NCBI RefSeq assembly: GCF_053078305.1
Contig: NZ_CP166879.1
Length of the DNA: 64,000 nt
Strand: one strand, 5' to 3'
Made by a program: the position numbers and the translations under genes. The notes under the pieces were generated by a model, which saw only the letters and a program-made list of their open reading frames with translations, did no database searches and was not told the DNA's origin. Positions 6,001 through 50,417 of this stretch are shown here, piece by piece (the first letter of the stretch is position 1; each line of letters opens with the position of its first letter).

Positions 6001-6415
6001 TGTCTACTGTGCCAGCGGTGGTAATGGTGAAAGTCGCCTTTTTCTACGCAAAGACGGCGAGTGGCGTTTTCCGCCGCTTGCAGCCGAACAGGCTTTGCAT
6101 TACCTCTCACAACTGATTGAGGGGTATCGTGAAGGGATGTCCGCGCCATTGCTGGTGTTACCTGAAAGTGGCGGCGCGTGGCTAAAAACCTGTTATGACG
6201 CGCAAAACGATGCCATGCTGGATGACGATTCCACGTTGCAAAAAGCCCGTACGAAATTCCTTCAGGCTTACGAAGGCAACATGATGGTGCGTGGCGAAGG
6301 TGATGATATCTGGTATCAAAGGCTCTGGCGGCAATTAACACCAGAGACAATGGAGGCAATCGTTGAACAGTCGCAACGTTTCCTGTTACCGCTGTTTCGC
6401 TTTAATCAGTCATGA
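3047..6415 (+). CDS. recC: Exodeoxyribonuclease V gamma subunit
   Basis: 1122-aa ORF starting MLRVYHSNRLDVLEALMEFIVERE…, recognised as RecC. Confidence 0.95.
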   Translation: MLRVYHSNRLDVLEALMEFIVERERLDDPFEPEMILVQSTGMAQWLQMTLSQKFGIAANIDFPLPASFIWDMFVRVLPEIPKESAFNKQSMSWKLMTLLPQLLEREDFTLLRHYLTDDSDKRKLFQLSSKAADLFDQYLVYRPEWLAQWETGHLVEGLGEAQAWQAPLWKALVEYTHELGQPRWHRANLYQRFIETLESATTCPPGLPSRVFICGISALPPVYLQALQALGKHIEIHLLFTNPCRYYWGDIKDPAYLAKLLTRQRRHSFEDRELPLFRDSENAGQLFNSDGEQDVGNPLLASWGKLGRDYIYLLSDLESSQELDAFVDVTPDNLLHNIQSDILELENRAVAGVNIEEFSRSDNKRPLDPLDSSITFHVCHSPQREVEVLHDRLLAMLEEDPTLTPRDIIVMVADIDSYSPFIQAVFGSAPADRYLPYAISDRRARQSHPVLEAFISLLSLPDSRFVSEDVLALLDVPVLAARFDITEEGLRYLRQWVNESGIRWGIDDDNVRELELPATGQHTWRFGLTRMLLGYAMESAQGEWQSVLPYDESSGLIAELVGHLASLLMQLNIWRRGLAQERPLEEWLPVCRDMLNAFFLPDAETEAAMTLIEQQWQAIIAEGLGAQYGDAVPLSLLRDELAQRLDQERISQRFLAGPVNICTLMPMRSIPFKVVCLLGMNDGVYPRQLAPLGFDLMSQKPKRGDRSRRDDDRYLFLEALISAQQKLYISYIGRSIQDNSERFPSVLVQELIDYIGQSHYLPGDEALNCDESEARVKAHLTCLHTRMPFDPQNYQPGERQSYAREWLPAASQAGKAHSEFVQPLPFTLPETVPLETLQRFWAHPVRAFFQMRLQVNFRTEDSEIPDTEPFILEGLSRYQINQQLLNALVEQDDAERLFRRFRAAGDLPYGAFGEIFWETQCQEMQQLADRVIACRQPGQSMEIDLACNGVQITGWLPQVQPDGLLRWRPSLLSVAQGMQLWLEHLVYCASGGNGESRLFLRKDGEWRFPPLAAEQALHYLSQLIEGYREGMSAPLLVLPESGGAWLKTCYDAQNDAMLDDDSTLQKARTKFLQAYEGNMMVRGEGDDIWYQRLWRQLTPETMEAIVEQSQRFLLPLFRFNQS

Positions 6416-6590
6416 GCGCTGTATAAAAATTGCGCAATCTATCCGCTTACTTTATGATGCGCACCAGTCACGGACTGATGGTTATATAAACATAGGCTGA
6501 CTCGTGCAGCACAAGATTAAATTCTGGCAGATGATTTGCGTTAACCTGTTGAATCTGGCCAGAAAATAAAGTTGATTATGAGGTCCGTGA

Positions 6591-9479
6591 ATGCCCCGCA
6601 GCACCTGGTTCAAAGCATTATTGTTGTTAGTTGCCCTTTGGGCACCATTAAGTCAGGCAGAAACGGGATGGCAGCCGATTCAGGAAACCATCCGTAAAAG
6701 TGATAAAGATAACCGCCAGTATCAGGCTATACGTCTGGATAACGGTATGGTGGTCTTGCTGGTTTCTGATCCGCAGGCAGTTAAATCGCTCTCGGCGCTG
6801 GTGGTGCCCGTTGGGTCGCTGGAAGATCCCGAGGCGTACCAGGGGCTGGCACATTACCTTGAACATATGAGTCTGATGGGGTCGAAAAAGTACCCGCAGG
6901 CTGACAGTCTGGCCGAATATCTCAAAATGCACGGCGGTAGTCACAATGCCAGCACGGCACCGTATCGCACGGCTTTCTATCTGGAAGTTGAGAACGACGC
7001 CTTGCCCGGTGCGGTAGACCGCCTGGCCGATGCTATTGCAGAACCCTTGCTCGACAAGAAATACGCCGAACGTGAGCGTAATGCAGTGAACGCTGAATTA
7101 ACCATGGCGCGTACGCGTGACGGGATGCGCATGGCACAGGTCAGCGCAGAAACCATTAACCCGGCACACCCCGGTTCAAAGTTTTCTGGTGGTAACCTCG
7201 AAACTTTAAGCGACAAACCTGGTAATCCGGTGCAGCAGGCGCTGAAAGATTTCCACGAGAAGTACTATTCCGCCAATTTGATGAAGGCGGTTATTTACAG
7301 TAATAAACCGCTGCCGGAGTTGGCAAAAATGGCGGCGGACACCTTTGGTCGCGTGCCGAACAAAGAGAGCAAAAAACCGGAAATCACCGTGCCGGTAGTC
7401 ACCGACGCGCAAAAGGGCATTATCATTCATTACGTCCCAGCGCTGCCGCGTAAAGTTCTGCGCGTTGAGTTTCGCATCGATAACAACTCAGCGAAGTTCC
7501 GCAGTAAAACGGATGAATTGATTACCTATCTGATTGGTAATCGCAGCCCAGGTACACTGTCTGACTGGCTGCAAAAGCAGGGGTTAGTTGAGGGCATTAG
7601 CGCCAACTCCGATCCTATCGTCAACGGCAACAGCGGCGTATTAGCGATCTCTGCGTCTTTAACCGATAAAGGTCTGGCGAATCGCGATCAGGTTGTGGCG
7701 GCTATTTTTAGCTACCTCAATTTGTTACGTGAAAAAGGGATCGATAAACAATACTTCGATGAACTGGCGAATGTGCTGGATATCGACTTCCGTTATCCGT
7801 CAATCACCCGTGATATGGATTACGTCGAATGGCTGGCAGATACCATGATTCGCGTTCCGGTTGAGCATACGCTGGATGCAGTCAATATTGCCGATCGGTA
7901 CGATGCTAAAGCAGTAAAAGAACGTCTGGCGATGATGACGCCGCAGAATGCGCGTATCTGGTATATCAGCCCGAAAGAGCCGCACAATAAAACGGCTTAT
8001 TTTGTCGATGCGCCGTATCAGGTCGATAAAATCAGCGAACAAACTTTCGCTGACTGGCAGCAAAAAGCTGCCAGTATTGCGCTCTCCTTACCGGAGCTTA
8101 ACCCCTATATTCCTGACGATTTCTCGCTGATTAAGTCAGAGAAGAAATATGACCATCCAGAGCTGATTGTTGATGAGTCGAATCTGCGCGTGGTGTATGC
8201 GCCAAGCCGTTATTTTGCCAGCGAACCCAAAGCTGATGTCAGCCTGATTTTGCGTAATCCGAAAGCCATGGACAGCGCCCGCAATCAGGTGATGTTTGCG
8301 CTCAATGATTATCTCGCAGGGCTGGCGCTTGATCAGTTAAGCAACCAGGCGTCGGTTGGTGGCATAAGTTTTTCCACCAACGCTAACAACGGCCTTATGG
8401 TTAATGCTAATGGTTACACCCAGCGTCTGCCGCAGCTGTTCCAGGCATTGCTCGAGGGATACTTTAGCTATACCGCTACGGAAGATCAGCTTGAGCAGGC
8501 GAAGTCCTGGTATAACCAGATGATGGATTCCGCAGAAAAGGGTAAAGCGTTTGAGCAGGCGATTATGCCCGCGCAGATGCTCTCGCAAGTGCCGTACTTC
8601 TCGCGAGATGAACGGCGTAAAATTTTGCCCTCCATTACGTTGAAAGAGGTGCTGGCCTATCGCGACGCCTTAAAATCAGGGGCTCGACCAGAGTTTATGG
8701 TTATCGGCAACATGACCGAGGCCCAGGCAACAACGCTGGCACGCGATGTGCAAAAACAGTTGGGCGCTGATGGTTCAGAGTGGTGTCGAAACAAAGATGT
8801 AGTGGTCGATAAAAAACAATCCGTCATCTTTGAAAAAGCCGGTAACAGCACCGACTCCGCACTGGCAGCGGTATTTGTACCGACTGGCTACGATGAATAC
8901 ACCAGCTCAGCCTATAGCTCTCTGTTGGGGCAGATCGTACAGCCGTGGTTCTACAATCAGTTGCGTACCGAAGAACAATTGGGCTATGCCGTGTTTGCGT
9001 TTCCAATGAGCGTGGGGCGTCAGTGGGGCATGGGCTTCCTTTTGCAAAGCAATGATAAACAGCCTTCATTCTTGTGGGAGCGTTACAAGGCGTTTTTCCC
9101 AACCGCAGAGGCAAAATTGCGAGCGATGAAGCCAGATGAGTTTGCGCAAATCCAGCAGGCGGTAATTACCCAGATGCTGCAGGCACCGCAAACGCTCGGC
9201 GAAGAAGCATCGAAGTTAAGTAAAGATTTCGATCGCGGCAATATGCGCTTCGATTCGCGTGATAAAATCGTGGCCCAGATAAAACTGCTGACGCCGCAAA
9301 AACTTGCTGATTTCTTCCATCAGGCGGTGGTCGAGCCGCAAGGCATGGCTATTCTGTCGCAGATTTCCGGCAGCCAGAACGGGAAAGCCGAATATGTGCA
9401 TCCTGAAGGCTGGAAAGTGTGGGAGAACGTCAGCGCGTTGCAGCAAACAATGCCCCTGATGAGTGAAAAGAATGAGTGA
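6591..9479 (+). CDS. ptrA: Protease III (pitrilysin), periplasmic zinc metalloprotease
   Basis: 962-aa ORF with signal peptide and the inverted zinc-binding motif HYLEH; lies between recC and recB as in E. coli. Confidence 0.95.
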   Translation: MPRSTWFKALLLLVALWAPLSQAETGWQPIQETIRKSDKDNRQYQAIRLDNGMVVLLVSDPQAVKSLSALVVPVGSLEDPEAYQGLAHYLEHMSLMGSKKYPQADSLAEYLKMHGGSHNASTAPYRTAFYLEVENDALPGAVDRLADAIAEPLLDKKYAERERNAVNAELTMARTRDGMRMAQVSAETINPAHPGSKFSGGNLETLSDKPGNPVQQALKDFHEKYYSANLMKAVIYSNKPLPELAKMAADTFGRVPNKESKKPEITVPVVTDAQKGIIIHYVPALPRKVLRVEFRIDNNSAKFRSKTDELITYLIGNRSPGTLSDWLQKQGLVEGISANSDPIVNGNSGVLAISASLTDKGLANRDQVVAAIFSYLNLLREKGIDKQYFDELANVLDIDFRYPSITRDMDYVEWLADTMIRVPVEHTLDAVNIADRYDAKAVKERLAMMTPQNARIWYISPKEPHNKTAYFVDAPYQVDKISEQTFADWQQKAASIALSLPELNPYIPDDFSLIKSEKKYDHPELIVDESNLRVVYAPSRYFASEPKADVSLILRNPKAMDSARNQVMFALNDYLAGLALDQLSNQASVGGISFSTNANNGLMVNANGYTQRLPQLFQALLEGYFSYTATEDQLEQAKSWYNQMMDSAEKGKAFEQAIMPAQMLSQVPYFSRDERRKILPSITLKEVLAYRDALKSGARPEFMVIGNMTEAQATTLARDVQKQLGADGSEWCRNKDVVVDKKQSVIFEKAGNSTDSALAAVFVPTGYDEYTSSAYSSLLGQIVQPWFYNQLRTEEQLGYAVFAFPMSVGRQWGMGFLLQSNDKQPSFLWERYKAFFPTAEAKLRAMKPDEFAQIQQAVITQMLQAPQTLGEEASKLSKDFDRGNMRFDSRDKIVAQIKLLTPQKLADFFHQAVVEPQGMAILSQISGSQNGKAEYVHPEGWKVWENVSALQQTMPLMSEKNE

Positions 9480-17791: not shown

Positions 17792-17868
<77 letters not shown>

Positions 17869-17900
17869 TCACCGTACTGCTTTATTTCATCAAATTTGAT

Positions 17901-17977
<77 letters not shown>

Positions 17978-18010
17978 TCACCGTACTGCTTTACTTCATC
18001 AAATTTTAAT

Positions 18011-18087
<77 letters not shown>

Positions 18088-19481: not shown

Positions 19482-19579
19482 GCCGGATGCGGCGTGAACG
19501 CCTTATCCGGCCTACAAATCATGCAAATCCAAAATATTGCAGGAGTTATGTAGGCCTGATAAGCGTAGCGCATCAGGCA
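19482..19579. repeat. BIME / REP pair in the mltA-tcdA intergenic region
   Basis: GCCGGATGCGGCGTGAACGCCTTATCCGGCCTACA … TGTAGGCCTGATAAGCGTAGCGCATCAGGC, typical REP units in inverted orientation. Confidence 0.85.
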
Positions 19580-22571: not shown

Positions 22572-22776
22572 AAAAAAAAGCACCGCAATTAGGCGGTGCT
22601 ACATTAATCACTATGGACAGACAGGGTAAATGTACAGGAAGTGAAAAAAGGTAGCTTTGCTACCATGGTCTGAATCGCAGACCAATTGCAAACACAACAA
22701 CACAACATCACAACCGTAAGCCAAAAGTTCACCAGAACACGCATTCCGATAAAACTTTTCGTTCCGGCTCAGGAAG
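22572..22776 (-). ncRNA. gcvB: GcvB small regulatory RNA
   Basis: Minus strand reads ACTTCCTGAGCCGGAACGAAAAGTTTTATCGGAATGCGTGTTCTGGTGAAC…GTTGTGATGTTGTGTTGTTGTGTTTGCAATTGG… (GU-rich R1 region) and ends in a hairpin plus T-run; divergent from gcvA. Confidence 0.9.
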
Positions 22777-22905
22777 TGCCGCCACTATAGGTATTTGCTG
22801 GTAGAAGCTCAACGGACAATTTATAATGGCTCAGATTAAAAAAACTAATAGGTTACACACTGTGATCTAATTGTTAAATTCATTTAACATCAAAGTTTAA
22901 AAGCC

Positions 22906-40948: not shown

Positions 40949-41317
40949 GTCGACAGGGAGTCAGACAACGAAGTGAACATCAGGATGATGACACTTCTGA
41001 AGGACACACCAGGATGGTGTTTCAGGGAAAGGCTTCTGGATGAAGCGAAGAGGATGACGCAGGACGCGTTAAAGGACACCTCCAGGATGGAGAATGAGAA
41101 CCGGTCAGGATGATCCGGTGGGTCAGGAAGGCCAGGGACACTTCAGGATGAAGTATCACATCGGGGTGGTGTGAGCAGGAAGCAATAGTTCAGGATGAAC
41201 GATTGGCCGCAAGGCCAGAGGAAAAGTTGTCAAGGATGAGCAGGGAGCAACAAAAGTAGCTGGAATGCTGCGAAACGAACCGGGAGCACTGTGAATACAG
41301 TGCTCCCTTTTTTTATT
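40949..41317 (+). ncRNA. csrB: CsrB regulatory RNA (CsrA-sequestering)
   Basis: Starts GTCGACAGGGAGTCAGACAACGAAGTGAACATCAGGATGATGACAC…; carries many CAGGATG / AGGA repeats and ends in a strong hairpin (GGGAGCACTGTGAATACAGTGCTCCC) plus T-run. Confidence 0.92.
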
Positions 41318-42938: not shown

Positions 42939-43372
42939 TATGTTCAGCGAGCGGTAAATGTCGTTTTAGCGGTGCTGAATCGAATCTTTTCAGGCAAATG
43001 CCAGTAAAAACTGCTTCATAGCGCGGATTTTTACTGGCGTTTGCCTGGAGTCAAGCGATCCATTTCATACTCTTCTTTATTTCTTCGTTTTAACCCTTCC
43101 TTTCTTGTTCTTGTTTTCATTTCCGTGAAGTGGATTCCACCGTCCAGGGCTAATGCCAAAATCGGGCCTCATTGAACGCATTAATGTTGTGTTGTTGCAC
43201 GGTGAGCCGCTATGGCGCGCTTTTTATACTGCTATTGCCAGATATAAACACGCGCCGTATTCGGCGAACGACCTATAAAAACGGCAAAAAACACCCTACG
43301 TCACCTCTGATTTCCTGGCGATGTCGCAGTCCAGAGTGAGCGTGGCTAACGCGAATTTTCAGGAGTGCAACA

Positions 43373-44725
43373 ATGAGTTCTTTAAGTCAGGCTGCGAGCA
43401 GTGTGGAAAAACGCACGAATGCTCGTTACTGGATAGTGGTGATGTTGTTTATCGTCACATCCTTCAACTACGGCGACCGCGCTACGCTTTCTATTGCCGG
43501 TTCGGAAATGGCCAAAGATATCGGCCTTGATCCCGTGGGAATGGGCTATGTGTTCTCTGCCTTCTCATGGGCTTATGTTATCGGGCAGATCCCTGGTGGT
43601 TGGTTGCTGGATCGTTTTGGTTCAAAACGCGTCTACTTCTGGTCGATCTTTATCTGGTCGATGTTTACCTTGCTGCAAGGCTTCGTCGATATCTTTAGTG
43701 GATTCGGCATTATCGTTGCCCTGTTTACTCTGCGCTTCCTGGTCGGGCTTGCTGAAGCGCCATCTTTCCCCGGCAACAGTCGCATTGTTGCGGCCTGGTT
43801 TCCGGCGCAGGAAAGGGGAACGGCGGTGTCGATTTTTAACTCCGCTCAATACTTCGCAACGGTGATCTTCGCGCCGATTATGGGCTGGCTGACGCATGAA
43901 GTGGGCTGGTCACACGTCTTCTTCTTTATGGGCGGTCTGGGGATTGTCATCAGCTTTATCTGGTTGAAAGTCATCCACGAGCCAAATCAACATCCGGGGG
44001 TAAATCAGAAAGAGCTGGAGTACATCGCCGCGGGTGGCGCGCTGATCAATATGGATCAGCAAAACACCAAAGTTAAAGTGCCGTTCAGCGTGAAGTGGGG
44101 GCAGATCAAACAACTGCTCGGGTCACGGATGATGATCGGCGTTTATATCGGTCAGTACTGTATTAACGCCCTGACTTACTTTTTCATTACCTGGTTTCCG
44201 GTTTATCTGGTGCAGGCGCGTGGGATGTCGATTCTGAAAGCGGGCTTTGTGGCTTCCGTTCCGGCGGTTTGTGGTTTTATCGGTGGTGTGCTGGGTGGGA
44301 TTATTTCCGACTGGCTGATGCGCCGCACGGGATCGCTGAACATTGCGCGTAAAACACCGATCGTAATGGGCATGTTGCTGTCGATGGTGATGGTGTTCTG
44401 CAACTACGTCAACGTTGAGTGGATGATCATCGGCTTTATGGCGCTGGCCTTCTTCGGTAAGGGCATCGGGGCGCTGGGTTGGGCAGTAATGGCAGATACC
44501 GCGCCAAAAGAGATCAGCGGTCTTTCCGGTGGCCTGTTCAACATGTTCGGTAACATTTCTGGCATCGTCACGCCAATCGCAATTGGTTATATCGTTGGCA
44601 CGACTGGCTCGTTTAATGGGGCGCTGATTTATGTTGGTGTTCATGCCTTAATCGCGGTACTGAGCTACCTGGTGCTGGTGGGCGATATCAAGCGTATCGA
44701 GCTGAAACCTGTCGCGGGGCAATAA
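43373..44725 (+). CDS. gudP: D-glucarate/galactarate transporter (MFS)
   Basis: 450-aa polytopic membrane ORF upstream of gudX/gudD. Confidence 0.9.
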
Positions 44726-44726
44726 G

Positions 44727-46067
44727 ATGACGACACAATCCAGTCCTGTTATTACTGATATGAAAGTCATTCCGGTCGCCGGGCACGATAGCATGTTGCT
44801 TAATATTGGTGGGGCACATAACGCATATTTCACCCGCAATATTGTGGTACTCACCGATAACGCCGGGCATACCGGCATTGGTGAAGCGCCGGGCGGAGAG
44901 GTGATTTATCAGACGCTTGTCGAAGCTATTCCGATGGTGCTGGGCCAGGAAGTTGCGCGCCTGAATAAAGTGGTTCAGCAGGTGCATAAAGGTAATCAGG
45001 CCGCCGATTTTGATACCTTCGGTAAAGGGGCCTGGACCTTTGAATTGCGCGTTAACGCCGTGGCGGCGCTGGAAGCCGCCTTGCTTGACCTGCTAGGTAA
45101 GGCGCTGAATGTTCCGGTCTGCGAACTGTTAGGGCCAGGCAAGCAACGCGATGCTATCACCGTCCTCGGTTATCTGTTTTATATCGGTGATCGGACTAAA
45201 ACCGATCTTCCTTATCTGGAAAATACGCCGGGCAATCATGAGTGGTATCAGTTGCGACATCAGAAAGCGATGAACAGCGAAGCCGTTGTGCGTCTGGCGG
45301 AAGCCTCACAGGATCGCTATGGCTTTAAAGATTTCAAACTTAAGGGCGGGGTGTTACCTGGCGAGCAAGAAATCGACACTGTTCGTGCATTGAAGAAAAG
45401 CTTCCCGGATGCGCGGATTACCGTTGATCCCAACGGTGCCTGGCTGCTTGATGAAGCCATTTCTTTGTGCAAAGGGCTGAATGATGTTCTTACCTATGCC
45501 GAAGATCCATGCGGCGCAGAACAGGGCTTCTCCGGACGTGAAGTGATGGCGGAGTTTCGGCGGGCGACCGGCTTGCCCGTCGCGACTAATATGATCGCCA
45601 CCAACTGGCGCGAAATGGGCCATGCGGTAATGCTCAATGCGGTGGATATTCCACTTGCCGATCCGCATTTCTGGACGCTTTCCGGTGCAGTCCGAGTGGC
45701 GCAGCTTTGCGACGACTGGGGGCTGACCTGGGGCTGCCATTCTAATAACCATTTCGATATCTCTCTGGCGATGTTTACCCATGTGGGCGCGGCGGCACCG
45801 GGTAATCCTACCGCTATCGATACCCACTGGATTTGGCAGGAGGGCGATTGTCGCCTGACCCAAAATCCGCTGGAGATTAAAAACGGAAAAATTGCCGTTC
45901 CTGATGCGCCCGGTCTGGGCGTGGAACTGGACTGGGAACAGGTACAAAAGGCACATGAGGCCTATAAACGTCTGCCTGGCGGTGCGCGTAACGACGCAGG
46001 CCCGATGCAGTACCTGATCCCCGGCTGGACCTTTGACCGTAAACGTCCCGTTTTCGGCCGTCATTGA
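44727..46067 (+). CDS. gudX: Glucarate dehydratase-related protein (enolase superfamily)
   Basis: 446-aa paralogue of the following gudD; the two translations are closely similar. Confidence 0.9.
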
Positions 46068-46087
46068 TTCTGAAAAAGGACATAAAT

Positions 46088-47428
46088 ATGAGTTCTCAAT
46101 TTACGACGCCTGTTGTTACTGAAATGCAGGTCATCCCGGTGGCGGGCCATGACAGTATGCTGATGAATCTGAGTGGTGCACACGCACCGTTCTTCACGCG
46201 TAATATTGTGATTATCAAAGATAATTCTGGTCACACTGGCGTAGGGGAAATTCCCGGCGGCGAGAAAATCCGTAAAACGCTGGAAGATGCGATTCCGCTG
46301 GTAGTGGGTAAAACGCTGGGTGAATACAAAAACGTTCTGACGCTGGTGCGTAATACTTTTGCCGATCGTGATGCCGGCGGGCGCGGTTTGCAGACATTTG
46401 ATTTGCGTACCACTATTCATGTAGTTACCGGGATAGAAGCGGCAATGCTGGATCTGCTGGGGCAGCATCTGGGGGTTAACGTGGCATCCCTGCTGGGCGA
46501 TGGTCAACAGCGTAGCGAAGTCGAAATGCTCGGTTATCTGTTCTTCGTCGGTAATCGCAAAGCCACACCGCTGCCGTATCAAAGCCAGCCGGATGACTCA
46601 TGCGACTGGTATCGCCTGCGTCATGAAGAAGCGATGACGCCGGATGCGGTGGTGCGCCTGGCGGAAGCGGCGTATGAAAAATATGGCTTCAACGATTTCA
46701 AACTGAAAGGCGGTGTACTGGCCGGGGAAGAAGAGGCCGAGTCTATTGTGGCACTGGCGCAACGCTTCCCGCAGGCGCGTATTACGCTCGATCCTAACGG
46801 TGCCTGGTCGCTGAACGAAGCGATTAAAATTGGTAAATACCTGAAAGGTTCGCTGGCTTATGCAGAAGATCCGTGTGGTGCGGAGCAAGGTTTCTCCGGG
46901 CGTGAAGTGATGGCAGAGTTCCGTCGCGCGACTGGCCTGCCGACTGCAACCAATATGATCGCCACCGACTGGCGGCAGATGGGCCATACGCTCTCGTTAC
47001 AATCCGTTGATATCCCGCTGGCGGATCCGCATTTCTGGACGATGCAAGGTTCGGTACGTGTGGCGCAAATGTGCCATGAATTTGGCCTGACCTGGGGTTC
47101 ACACTCTAACAACCACTTCGATATTTCCCTGGCGATGTTTACCCATGTTGCCGCCGCTGCACCGGGTAAAATTACTGCTATTGATACGCACTGGATTTGG
47201 CAGGAAGGCAATCAGCGCCTGACCAAAGAACCGTTTGAGATCAAAGGCGGGCTGGTACAGGTGCCAGAAAAACCGGGGCTGGGTGTAGAAATCGATATGG
47301 ATCAAGTGATGAAAGCCCATGAGCTGTATCAGAAACACGGGCTTGGCGCGCGTGACGATGCGATGGGAATGCAGTATCTGATTCCTGGCTGGACGTTCGA
47401 TAACAAGCGCCCGTGCATGGTGCGTTAA
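46088..47428 (+). CDS. gudD: D-glucarate dehydratase
   Basis: 446 aa from [23 protein letters not shown]. Confidence 0.9.
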
Positions 47429-47440
47429 GACAAAAAACCA

Positions 47441-47466
47441 AAACCGGCTCTATCTGGAGCCGGTTT
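47441..47466 (+). terminator. Hairpin after gudD
   Basis: AAACCGGCTC-TATCTG-GAGCCGGTTT. Confidence 0.55.
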
Positions 47467-47490
47467 GAGACTGATGCCAAACACAAAATT

Positions 47491-47587
47491 GCCTGATGCG
47501 CTACGCTTATCAGGCCTACATGCTTTTTAATTTATTGAATTTAATTGGTTTTGTAGGCCGGATAAGGCGTTAACGCCGCATCCGGCA
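47491..47587. repeat. BIME / REP pair in the gudD-barA intergenic region
   Basis: GCCTGATGCGCTACGCTTATCAGGCCTACA … TGTAGGCCGGATAAGGCGTTAACGCCGCATCCGGC. Confidence 0.85.
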
Positions 47588-47660
47588 TAAACACAGGCAC
47601 TTTGTCACCAATCTGAAACCAGCGTCATAAAAAGCCGATTGCTACTCGACAAGACGTCCG

Positions 47661-50417
47661 TTACCCGAGAATTTTGCTGGCTTCGCGCGCGACATTATCC
47701 ATCTCGTCCAACAGTTCCAGCAGCTCCGGCTCCAAATCTTCTTCTTTAGTACCGCTACGTAGCTGTTGTTCGATCAGTTGGCAGAGATTCTTCATACGCG
47801 GCACACCGCTATAGCCGCAACTGCCATGCAGTTTATGAATCAAATCAACCAGGCCTTCCGGGTTTTCTCCAACCAGCTGTTCCTCAACTTTGTTGCGAAC
47901 TTCAGGCAGGAAATCGAGTAACATTTGCAGCATATCGCGCGCTAAATCGGTTTTTCCTGCTGCCTGGCGTAGTGCCAGTTGCCAGTCGAGGGTCGCATTC
48001 GGGTTCACCACAATTTCGTTGACTTCGGGCGTCACGACGCGAGACGAAATACCGCTGCCAGGCTTGTAGCGCAACAACAAATTATGCAATCGCTCTTCTT
48101 CAATCGGTTTCGCCAGATAATCGCTCATCCCTGCGCCAAGCAGCTTCTCTTTTTGCCCGGCCATTGCATGCGCCGTTACCGCGATAACCGGCGTTTGTTG
48201 CTGATGGGGGAGCTGGTGGATGAGCTCGCAGGCCCGAATGCCATCCATGTCCGGCATTTGAATATCCATTAAGATCAAATCGAACGGCATCTGTTTCGCC
48301 CGTTCAACCGCCTGATGCCCGCTATCGCAAAGTTCCACATGTTGCACCATATCTTCCAGCAATGCGCCGATAAGTTTCAGGTTAGCGGGGTTGTCATCAA
48401 CCGCCATGACTGTCATTGCCAGCTTACTTTCATCGGTTACAGGCAAAAGCGTGTTTTGTTTGTGATGACAAAATTCCGTCAGGGCAGGCAGCAGGCGCGT
48501 AGGTGTTAATGGTTTCAGCAGACACGCGCCGATACCATCTTGCTTGAGTTTTTCAGCATTGACTTGTGCATGGCAAGGAAGTGCCAGCATCAGGAAATCG
48601 GTCATCGATACCGCTTTCGCTAATCGCTCATGTTGCATTGTTAGCGGCTCGCGGAAGGTCACCGCGATGCCTAACAACATCATGTCGTAATGCGCGGGAG
48701 GCAGCGCGGAGAACGTTGGGCTATAAACCACTTCCAGCGGCGTTTCACTTAAAATATCCAGCGTGCATTGCGCTGCTGCGGAGTTTGGTTCGACATAGGC
48801 CAGGCGTTTACCGGCGAGGCACTGGGTGGATGGCCCTTCAATAATAATGTTCGGGTTCAGATCGAGATTAATGTGGAACCAGAAAGTTGAACCGCGATTC
48901 GGCTGGCTATGGAACGAAATATCGCCGCCCATTTCATTAACCAGTTTTTGTGTAATCACCAGCCCCAGCCCGGTGCCACCATGACGGCGGGAAATACTGG
49001 CATCAGCCTGTCGGAAGGCCTGGAATAAGCGCGATTGATCACGTTCAGGAATACCAATGCCGGTATCCCGAATCTGCACTTCAATCTGCACTTTGGTATT
49101 ACTCAGCGCACGTTTTTCTACCAGAATATCAATGTTGCCATTCTCGGTGAATTTAATTGCATTCCCCACCAGGTTAGTGATGATTTGCTGTAATCGCAGT
49201 GGGTCGCCGATCACGTTATCAGGCACGTCGCTTTTAATATTGAGCGTCAGTTCCAACCCTTTATCGTGAGAAGAATGTGCCAGCAGAGTAACGACTTCAT
49301 CCAGCGTGCTGCGTAGTGGGAATGGAATACTTTCCAGAATCAGCTTACCTGCTTCCAGTTTCGAGAAGTCGAGAACATCATTAATAATTGCCAGCAAATT
49401 ATTTGCCGAACGTTCAATCGTATTCAGGTGATCGCGCTGCGTTGGTGTTAATTCTGTTTTCAGCGTCAGGCGGGTAAAGCCAATAACACCATTCAGTGGT
49501 GTACGCAGCTCGTGTGACATATTTGCCAGAAACTCGGATTTAATACGTGCCGCTTCCTGGGCGCGCTTTTTCGCCAGATCCAACTCAACGTTCTGAATTT
49601 CCATCTGCTCCAGCGTTTCACGCAGATCGGACGTCGCCTGGTCGATATTGTGCTGCATCTCTTCGTGATAAGCAGCCAGCGACATTGCCATCGAGTTGAT
49701 ACCGTTTTTCAGCATATCCAGCTCGCCGAGCATAAATCCTTCCACCCGGCTGTCGAGTTGCCCGCGACGGATGCGGTCGACGGTATTCACCATGTTGCGA
49801 ATCGGACCGGTTACATCGCGCATTAAGCGCCAGCCAAAAATAAGCGCAATACCGATACAAAACAGCATCATCACGCTGGAAATAAAGATCTCTTTATATT
49901 GCTGCAAGCGAACCGATTTAAGATCCAGCTCAAGCGCAATATATCCCAACATATTTTGACTATTTTTGGCATCGCTACTGGGCGATTCGTCGGGGGAGTA
50001 ACTCTCAGAAATAATCGGCGTGCGCAGGATCATAATATCGCCGTCACGAGTGACAGTGAGCTGGCGAGGAAACGGCACGTTGCTGCCGAGCTGCATTGAT
50101 GAGGGATCAAGATGAAAATTGGAGGTGACAAAGAGTCGGTTATTTTCATCATAAACCGAAATCGCGCGAACAATATCGGAATGGCGACGATGCAGTACGC
50201 TTATTAACTGACCGATAGATTCGCGATTTTGCAGGCTCATGCCATATTCAGTAGAAACTGCAAGCGGCTCAATAATGCTGGCACCGGCATCTTCCAGTTG
50301 ACGCTGCAAGTCGTTATAGCGATGCACGACGAAAAAGATACTCAGCAATAAACCAATAAGGACGGTCGGTGCCAGGATCAGAATCATCATGCGTGCGCGC
50401 AGGCTGTAGTTGGTCAT
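47661..50417 (-). CDS. barA: Hybrid sensor histidine kinase BarA
   Basis: 918-aa ORF with HAMP, HisKA/HATPase, receiver and HPt regions. Confidence 0.95.

Follow-up and report, generated by a model that had tools for sequence, protein, structure and literature searches.

The gudX-gudD pair of the Escherichia coli hexarate operon: a divergent paralogue of D-glucarate dehydratase with an intact catalytic set and a clade-specific signature

What does GudX do? In Escherichia coli, the gene of D-glucarate dehydratase, gudD, lies directly behind a paralogue, gudX, whose product keeps the full catalytic machinery without having an assigned role, and this in a model organism. Locus, proteins, structures, and the puzzle posed by GudX have all been described before, and the operon is relevant to how enteric bacteria grow on oxidised sugars during gut inflammation (PMC11077982). 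Here, we analyzed a window of 64,000 nucleotides that carries the locus. We add a clade signature of 13 sites concentrated in putative lid loops, the finding that selection on gudX equals that on gudD, solo gudX-type genes in a pathway context, and a natural hybrid gene. Together, these provide concrete targets for mutagenesis and assays.

The genes around the pair are arranged in the order queF (minus strand), syd, csrB, yqcC, truC, yqcA, gudP, gudX, gudD, barA (minus strand), rlmD, and relA. The gap of 434 nt between yqcA and gudP (42939-43372, plus strand) presumably holds the promoter and regulatory region of the operon. A simple scan of its plus strand for sigma-70 promoters returned zero matches; the homologous PgudTYD promoter of Salmonella is under CdaR-dependent control (PMC11077982). 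The first gene, gudP (43373-44725, plus strand), encodes an MFS galactarate/glucarate/glycerate transporter of 450 aa, as indicated by its open reading frame (ORF), its RefSeq name, Pfam (MFS_1), and NCBIfam (TIGR00893, 538.6 bits for a cut-off of 395). One nucleotide separates its TAA stop from the ATG of gudX. The latter (44727-46067, plus strand) encodes the glucarate dehydratase-related protein (GlucDRP), recognized from its ORF and its PDB matches, and gudD (46088-47428, plus strand) encodes D-glucarate dehydratase, recognized from its identity to PDB entries, its score against TIGR03247, and the ORF that starts at ATG 46088. Both proteins have 446 aa.

A preliminary description of the window had placed two same-strand ORFs of 446 aa in tandem at exactly these positions, and had named them gudX and gudD of the enolase superfamily. 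Positions and names are both right: the names are those of the RefSeq and K-12 annotations, and an enolase C-terminal domain is present in both proteins. Its statement that the stop of gudX and the gudD region overlap has to be dropped. The TGA of gudX occupies 46065-46067, the accepted ATG of gudD follows 20 nt past this stop, and only a mechanical ORF of 454 aa opening at TTG 46064 overlaps the TGA. RefSeq uses ATG 46088 for gudD, and the spacing between the two genes is identical there (gudX ends at 6568, gudD starts at 6589) and in K-12. The 20-nt spacer (46068-46087, plus strand), TTCTGAAAAAGGACATAAAT, holds an AAGGA Shine-Dalgarno-like site.

Our scan for terminator-like sites found none in the gudP-gudX or gudX-gudD junctions. 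A G+C-rich hairpin with a 10-bp stem (47441-47466, assigned to neither strand) lies 13 nt 3' of the gudD stop, with a T-run on the minus strand and an A-run upstream on the plus strand. It is likely to be a transcript end common to the convergent gudD and barA, a function that we infer from the sequence. Long antisense ORFs within gudX and gudD (e.g., 45354-46064 and 46061-46582, minus strand) were discarded as by-products, the sense frames being identical or nearly identical to crystallised proteins. When the 4.7 kb of gudP-gudX-gudD were used as a query, 5408 of the 5426 complete E. coli genomes matched, with at least 80% of the query covered. The top matches were 99.6% identical, and the matched region carries the annotation gudP / gudX / gudD / barA. 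The three genes are 97.5-98.4% identical to those of K-12 MG1655, so that the window comes from an E. coli other than K-12. It is essentially certain that the locus is the E. coli hexarate-catabolism operon gudP-gudX-gudD, that GudP imports glucarate and galactarate, that GudX is the GudD paralogue GlucDRP, and that GudD is the enolase-superfamily D-glucarate dehydratase whose product is 5-dehydro-4-deoxy-D-glucarate.

The similarity between gudX and gudD is far beyond chance. BLASTP aligns the two proteins with 281/448 identities (63%), 78% positives, and E = 0, and a direct DNA repeat of 300 nt (45240-45539 and 46604-46903, spacing 1364) is 69% identical. Over the whole genes, nucleotide identity is 65%, and just 43% at third codon positions. 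The GudD of the window matches the K-12 enzyme of the crystal structures (PDB 1EC7/1EC8/1EC9/1ECQ) with 100% identity and has 0 amino-acid differences from K-12, and E. coli GudD (GlucD, b2787; also in 4GYP) has the length and the fold family of GudX. The best PDB matches of GudX are 4IL0 and chain C of 4GYP, both entitled 'Glucarate dehydratase-related protein'. This K-12 GudX (b2788; 4IL0 and 4GYP chains C/D) comes from the same locus and shares 440 of 446 residues with ours. The six substitutions (T2A, E58D, E66D, D142E, L164V, and S225R) all fall outside the catalytic and signature positions discussed below, and the active-site and clade-signature residues are all shared. The entry 4GYP holds both K-12 sequences, GlucD and GlucDRP, which thus co-assembled in the crystal.

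The two paralogues part ways in family assignment. The NCBIfam equivalog of glucarate dehydratase, TIGR03247, has a cut-off of 828.7 bits; GudD scores 898.7 and GudX 746.2. By these scores GudD is a member of TIGR03247, and GudX belongs to a sister clade outside the equivalog. The sub-threshold score is the reason why PGAP gives GudX the generic name 'enolase C-terminal domain-like protein', K-12 having 'glucarate dehydratase-related protein'. Both proteins match the Pfam enolase C-terminal domain MR_MLE_C (172 bits for GudX, 164 for GudD), and GudX matches MR_MLE_N with 35 bits. GudD has no match to MR_MLE_N at E <= 0.001, yet it is identical to the solved structure 1EC7. Hence, the pair shows the two-domain architecture of the enolase superfamily, an N-terminal capping domain and a C-terminal barrel domain. 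The L-talarate/galactarate, D-mannonate, and galactonate dehydratases share with GudX the fold and the partial-reaction chemistry, and match it weakly at the profile level, but GudX lies outside these acid-sugar dehydratase families, with scores far under their cut-offs (e.g., 66 bits for NF047820 against 500).

Outside Escherichia, the best structure match to GudX is a protein of Actinobacillus succinogenes (PDB 3N6H/3N6J/3PFR; 791 bits, against 624 for GudD), deposited under the generic title 'Mandelate racemase/muconate lactonizing protein'. It shows the GudX signature in the alignment, except for V instead of I at position 27. Hence, the GudX type reaches the Pasteurellaceae, where it was solved alone. 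The entry 3PFR reportedly contains bound D-glucarate. The other sampled orthologue from the family, that of Cricetibacter, is 72% identical to GudX.

To the preliminary description, the two sequences were closely similar and gudX was the copy without a clearly assigned activity. The former calls for some qualification, with identities of 65% for the DNA and 43% at third positions; the latter is borne out by the generic names and by the 746 bits against a cut-off of 828.7. It had also considered that the two might keep identical catalytic residues and be simple recent duplicates. As detailed below, the residues are indeed identical at 20 of 20 positions, but the duplication is old, given the third-position identity of 43% and the separate clade formed by GudX.

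We scanned one genome per species and obtained 80 loci. GudX-type loci number 44 (43 from the scan and one E. coli record) and GudD-only loci number 37. The former come from Enterobacterales, Orbales, and Pasteurellales, with one additional case each in Paludibacterium, in Halomonas, and in a proteobacterial metagenome-assembled genome. Every single-copy GlucD in the sample (Pseudomonas, Bacillus, Paenibacillus, Bradyrhizobium, Variovorax, Acinetobacter, and others) is of the GudD type. Most have 72-77% identity to E. coli GudD (69-70% in two cases), and all have 64-66% identity to GudX. At 73-77% identity, the Pseudomonas, Bacillus, and Paenibacillus enzymes are nearer to E. coli GudD than is the GudX encoded next to it (63%). 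In a midpoint-rooted NJ tree, GudX sequences form one clade apart from all GudD-type sequences, and the order of branching within this clade largely mirrors that among the partner GudDs. This leaves a very old split or a burst of change in GudX followed by a freeze; the midpoint-rooted tree fits both.

Purifying selection acts on gudX and gudD with equal strength. Relative to Citrobacter, dN is 0.019-0.022 and dS about 1 per gene, i.e., a dN/dS of about 0.02 for both gudX and gudD, and the median of dN(gudX)/dN(gudD) over 23 genera is 1.24. Hence, GudX is not a decaying copy.

We then compared 20 catalytic or ligand positions, in GudD numbering N27, H32, T103, Y150, F152, K205, K207, D235, N237, E260, D261, E266, N289, D313, H339, S340, N341, D366, H368, and R422. 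GudX and GudD are identical at every one of them, and all are 100% conserved among the 45 sequences of the GudX clade. The acid/base set of GudX consists of K204 and K206 (the KxK motif), the H338-D312 dyad, and N236, equivalent to K205, K207, H339-D313, and N237 in GudD. The residues D235, E260, and N289 of GlucD, reportedly the ligands of the essential Mg2+ (Gulick et al., 2000), correspond to D234, E259, and N288 of GudX and are invariant in the same 45 sequences. Given a doubt on numbering, both E260 and E266 were examined as second metal ligand, and both are conserved. A conserved Arg presumably reaches into the active site of the neighboring subunit. Four of the 20 positions (K205, K207, N237, and H339) are listed for 1ECQ in the Catalytic Site Atlas (PMC4922564). 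The other 16 positions follow from the structural work on GlucD, and are presumably involved in catalysis or ligand binding.

To find what separates the clades, we retained alignment columns in which each clade has its own state at a conservation of at least 90% (45 GudX-clade and 79 GudD-type sequences). There are 13 such columns: from GudD to GudX, L28I, S29G, R88H, an inserted G89, Q102W, D105E, I110V, H111N, and T114A in the N-terminal part, and D294N, S322A, S338C, and G418P in the rest. In GudX numbering, these are I27, G28, H87, G89, W103, E106, V109, N110, A113, N293, A321, C337, and P417. The GudX of the window carries every one of these residues, each of which is 93-100% conserved in its clade, and all sequences of the clade have in addition a deletion of two residues (T108-T109 of GudD).

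Nine of the 13 columns, together with the deletion, fall in two N-terminal segments beside N27/H32 and T103. One is the '20s loop', where N26-I27-G28 of GudX (44802-44810, plus strand) stands for N-L-S in GudD; I27 occurs in 96% and G28 in 98% of the 45 GudX-clade sequences, L in 100% and S in 99% of the 79 GudD-type ones. The other is a remodelled '100s loop' from H87 to A113 (44985-45065, plus strand), with H87, the inserted G89, W103, E106, the T108-T109 deletion, V109, N110, and A113. The GudD-type residues L28, S29, Q102, D105, I110, H111, and T114 are 94-100% conserved in 79 sequences, and GudX departs from the GudD type at all seven, with I, G, W, E, V, N, and A. Capping-domain loops of this sort are mobile, close over the substrate, and set specificity in the enolase superfamily. 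We take the two segments to be active-site lid loops, on the basis of their place in the primary sequence and of the general features of the superfamily. Outside them, C337 (codon at 45735-45737, plus strand; S338 in GudD) adjoins the general-base histidine H338 (H339 in GudD); it is present in 93% of the GudX clade, and all GudD-type sequences (100%) have S. Of the 12 substituted positions, five are at most two residues away from an active-site residue, for 1.6 expected (p about 0.014, and about 0.05 for distances within 1 or 3), with proximity counted along the sequence. The enrichment near active-site residues is modest.

The neighborhoods of the GudX-type genes are very regular. In 39 of the 44 loci, gudD is found directly 3' of gudX on one strand, and gudP is upstream in most. 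In 39 other tandem loci, there are 18-90 nt between the last position of the gudX match and the first of the gudD match (tblastn coordinates, stop codon included). One locus (L036) has gudD near gudX in another arrangement and one (L006) is truncated. An adjacent gudD is absent from three loci. In Halomonas eurihalina the GudX-type gene comes after kdgD, which encodes 5-dehydro-4-deoxyglucarate dehydratase, in Paludibacterium the order is garK-gudP-gudX, and in Pantoea stewartii there is one hybrid gene, described below. In both Halomonas and Paludibacterium, the GudX-type gene is the sole member of the GlucD family within the sampled locus. Conversely, 0 of the 37 GudD-only loci have a GudX-type neighbor. 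In Dickeya solani, the genes form a co-oriented cluster gudP-gudX-gudD-garL-garR-garK, with garD adjoining (PMC10202176, supplement), and gudP, gudD, gudX, and garL were found by Tn-seq to be fitness genes on galactarate (PMC10202176). We did not retain this as evidence on GudX function: since the genes form one co-oriented cluster, gudX insertions are probably polar on garL.

In our favored reading, to which we give a probability of about 45%, GudX joins GudD in a mixed tetramer as a partner subunit equipped for catalysis. It would be translated from the same mRNA as GudD, just ahead of it, and the two would assemble into a GudD2-GudX2 tetramer. GudX would retain everything needed for metal binding and acid/base catalysis, namely the KxK motif, the His-Asp dyad, the Asp, Glu, and Asn that bind Mg2+, and the inter-subunit Arg. 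Its two capping-domain lid loops would have been remodelled and then frozen. Within the heterotetramer, it may take part in the dehydration or epimerisation of hexarates with an altered lid behavior or substrate preference. By itself, owing to these altered lids, it would be an inefficient glucarate dehydratase in E. coli, neither a decaying copy nor a bare scaffold. This reading is based on the 4GYP co-crystal, the near-obligate adjacency of gudD, the conserved inter-subunit Arg, and the sub-threshold score against TIGR03247.

Activity and growth data bear on the same point. Hubbard et al. reportedly found in 1998 (Biochemistry) that GlucDRP is strongly impaired in the dehydration and epimerisation of glucarate and idarate. 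In Salmonella Typhi, where ygcY (the equivalent of gudX) is apparently intact, an extended lag on glucarate persists once the transporter is restored, and with the GudD of S. Typhimurium growth reaches S. Typhimurium levels, the lag being still apparent (PMC11077982). These growth data are consistent with GudX not replacing GudD. The 4GYP co-crystal alone is no proof of a physiological heteromer. Moreover, the solo genes of Halomonas and Paludibacterium suggest that proteins of the GudX type can function with no GudD encoded next to them, which counts against the partner-subunit reading. More broadly, and tentatively, GudX-type proteins may be genuine enzymes of the hexarate pathway, whose lids give them a distinct substrate preference or properties specific to the heterotetramer and absent from homomers. 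This is on balance rather doubtful; if true, the solo genes of Halomonas and Paludibacterium and the P. stewartii hybrid are natural test cases for GudX function.

The main rival holds that GudX acts as an independent dehydratase or epimerase of an acid sugar that is not D-glucarate, the heteromer being incidental. Candidate substrates are other stereoisomers of hexarate and related diacids that GudP imports, and the product would feed the same downstream pathway. The invariant catalytic residues suit such an enzyme equally well. The complete set kept across the clade at a dN/dS of about 0.02, the clade-fixed changes concentrated in loops that generally set specificity in the superfamily, the solo genes beside kdgD in Halomonas and garK-gudP in Paludibacterium, and the score of GudX under the GlucD equivalog cut-off all speak for it. 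However, the residues that we take to contact glucarate, including T103, H32, N27, and R422, are all unchanged, and the Actinobacillus GudX-type crystal 3PFR presumably contains D-glucarate. The adjacency of gudD in 39 of 44 loci would also be needless for an independent enzyme. Finally, and again to its disadvantage, we know of no report of an alternative substrate of GudX, despite the work of the Enzyme Function Initiative on this target. We hold this explanation to be unlikely.

It is more improbable still that GudX is a weak and largely redundant glucarate/idarate dehydratase, be it a backup or a case of 'enzyme evolution in progress'. Its catalytic residues are identical to those of GudD, its activity was reportedly low in the 1998 study, and the gudX allele of the window has 6 amino-acid differences from K-12 for 0 in gudD, all of which a redundant copy would explain. 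So would the occurrence of ygcY as a pseudogene in some host-adapted Salmonella serovars (PMC3282883; PMC11077982), but in these same serovars the remaining pathway also degrades (PMC11077982). Furthermore, a redundant copy would not be expected to match the main enzyme in strength of selection (dN ratio of 1.24, dN/dS of about 0.02), nor to have 13 clade-specific residues fixed over several bacterial orders.

The 4GYP heteromer crystal, the low activity reported for GlucDRP, and the tight co-location with gudD would also fit a pseudoenzyme devoid of catalysis, with the stabilisation or regulation of GudD as its sole role. Pseudoenzymes normally lose catalytic and binding residues, whereas 0 of 45 sequences lost any catalytic, metal-binding, or substrate-binding residue although synonymous sites are saturated, and we see this as very improbable. 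A simple recent tandem duplication, which the equal length, orientation, adjacency, and identical catalytic residues might have suggested, is refuted by the low amino-acid and third-position identities, by the closeness of GudD to single-copy GlucDs rather than to GudX, and by the separate GudX clade that broadly parallels its partner GudDs.

The scan also yielded a few unusual genes. The single gene of Pantoea stewartii is a hybrid gudX'-'gudD, of the GudX type up to about alignment column 320 and of the GudD type after it. Its identity is 0.75-0.98 to Pantoea GudX before the switch, and 0.96-0.99 to Pantoea GudD in columns 320-400. The switch point falls in a region that is nearly identical between the paralogues, and the hybrid is the expected product of unequal recombination between gudX and gudD. 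Some longer proteins of the protein database (P0001-P0005, 583-690 aa) are singletons and were set aside as probable frameshift or assembly fusions. Lastly, Lucifera butyrica has an independent tandem pair, in which the upstream copy no longer has T103 and its 100s loop is lengthened by an insertion of 17 residues.

When positions 44727-47428 were compared with the corresponding locus of E. coli K-12 MG1655 (L082), gudX showed 6 residue differences, with a dN/dS of 0.065. In gudD, all 24 differences were silent, leaving the protein identical. The neighbouring transporter gene gudP showed 1 change.

Among the loci of the one-genome-per-species scan, Pantoea stewartii subsp. stewartii carries a gudX'-'gudD hybrid (L032:6001-7338) as the sole GlucD-family gene at its locus. 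The 5' part is of the GudX type up to approximately alignment column 320, including the signatures of both presumed lid loops. Past this point the gene is of the GudD type, with columns 320-400 being 96-99% identical to Pantoea GudD, and it carries the GudD-type residues D294, S322, S338, and G418 (GudD numbering). On the 3' side it is directly followed by garL, and then by two more ORFs on the same strand and a convergent ORF of 909 aa. From its sequence, the hybrid looks like the product of unequal recombination between the tandem gudX and gudD paralogues.

A tandem GlucD-family pair was also found in Lucifera butyrica (L061:4581-5951 and 6001-7323). Both copies fall in the GudD clade, and the pair is independent of gudX-gudD. 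In the upstream copy, 17 residues are inserted into the 100s loop, glutamate stands in place of T103, and the changes S29C and H111N occur, a pattern that parallels the route of divergence of GudX.

Two GudX-type genes lack a gudD at distances of up to 6 kb: one in Halomonas eurihalina (L041:4866-7338), where the gene immediately follows kdgD and precedes three unassigned ORFs, and one in Paludibacterium yongneupense (L030:3344-7335), where the order is garK-gudP-gudX. Five singleton database proteins of 583-690 aa (P0001-P0005) outscored full-length GudX. In these, a frameshift or the assembly has probably fused gudX to gudD or to an adjacent gene. One of them, from Salmonella, is named "glucarate dehydratase 2".

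The interval between gudD and barA contains two inverted REP-type palindromic units, tgcctgatgcgctacgcttatcaggcctac and gtaggccggataaggcgttaacgccgcatccggca (47490-47589). The number of places matched by the 4.7-kb query spanning gudP, gudX, and gudD had a median of 20 across E. coli genomes, probably because of these units. Shortly past the yqcA stop, 5' of gudP, lies an inverted repeat with 35-nt arms (77% complementary) and a 17-nt loop (42976-43062), a possible terminator or regulatory element.

A full-length CsrB sRNA gene (40958-41317, + strand; Rfam RF00018, 384 bits) lies between syd and yqcC. The barA gene adjoining gudD (47661-50417, - strand) encodes the sensor kinase that governs csrB transcription via UvrY. 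Elsewhere in the window, Rfam matches exceeding their respective gathering scores correspond to the GcvB sRNA (22572-22777, - strand), three tandem tRNA genes with identical scores (17795-18087, - strand), and the sRNA ES036 (CssrF; 19515-19557, + strand).
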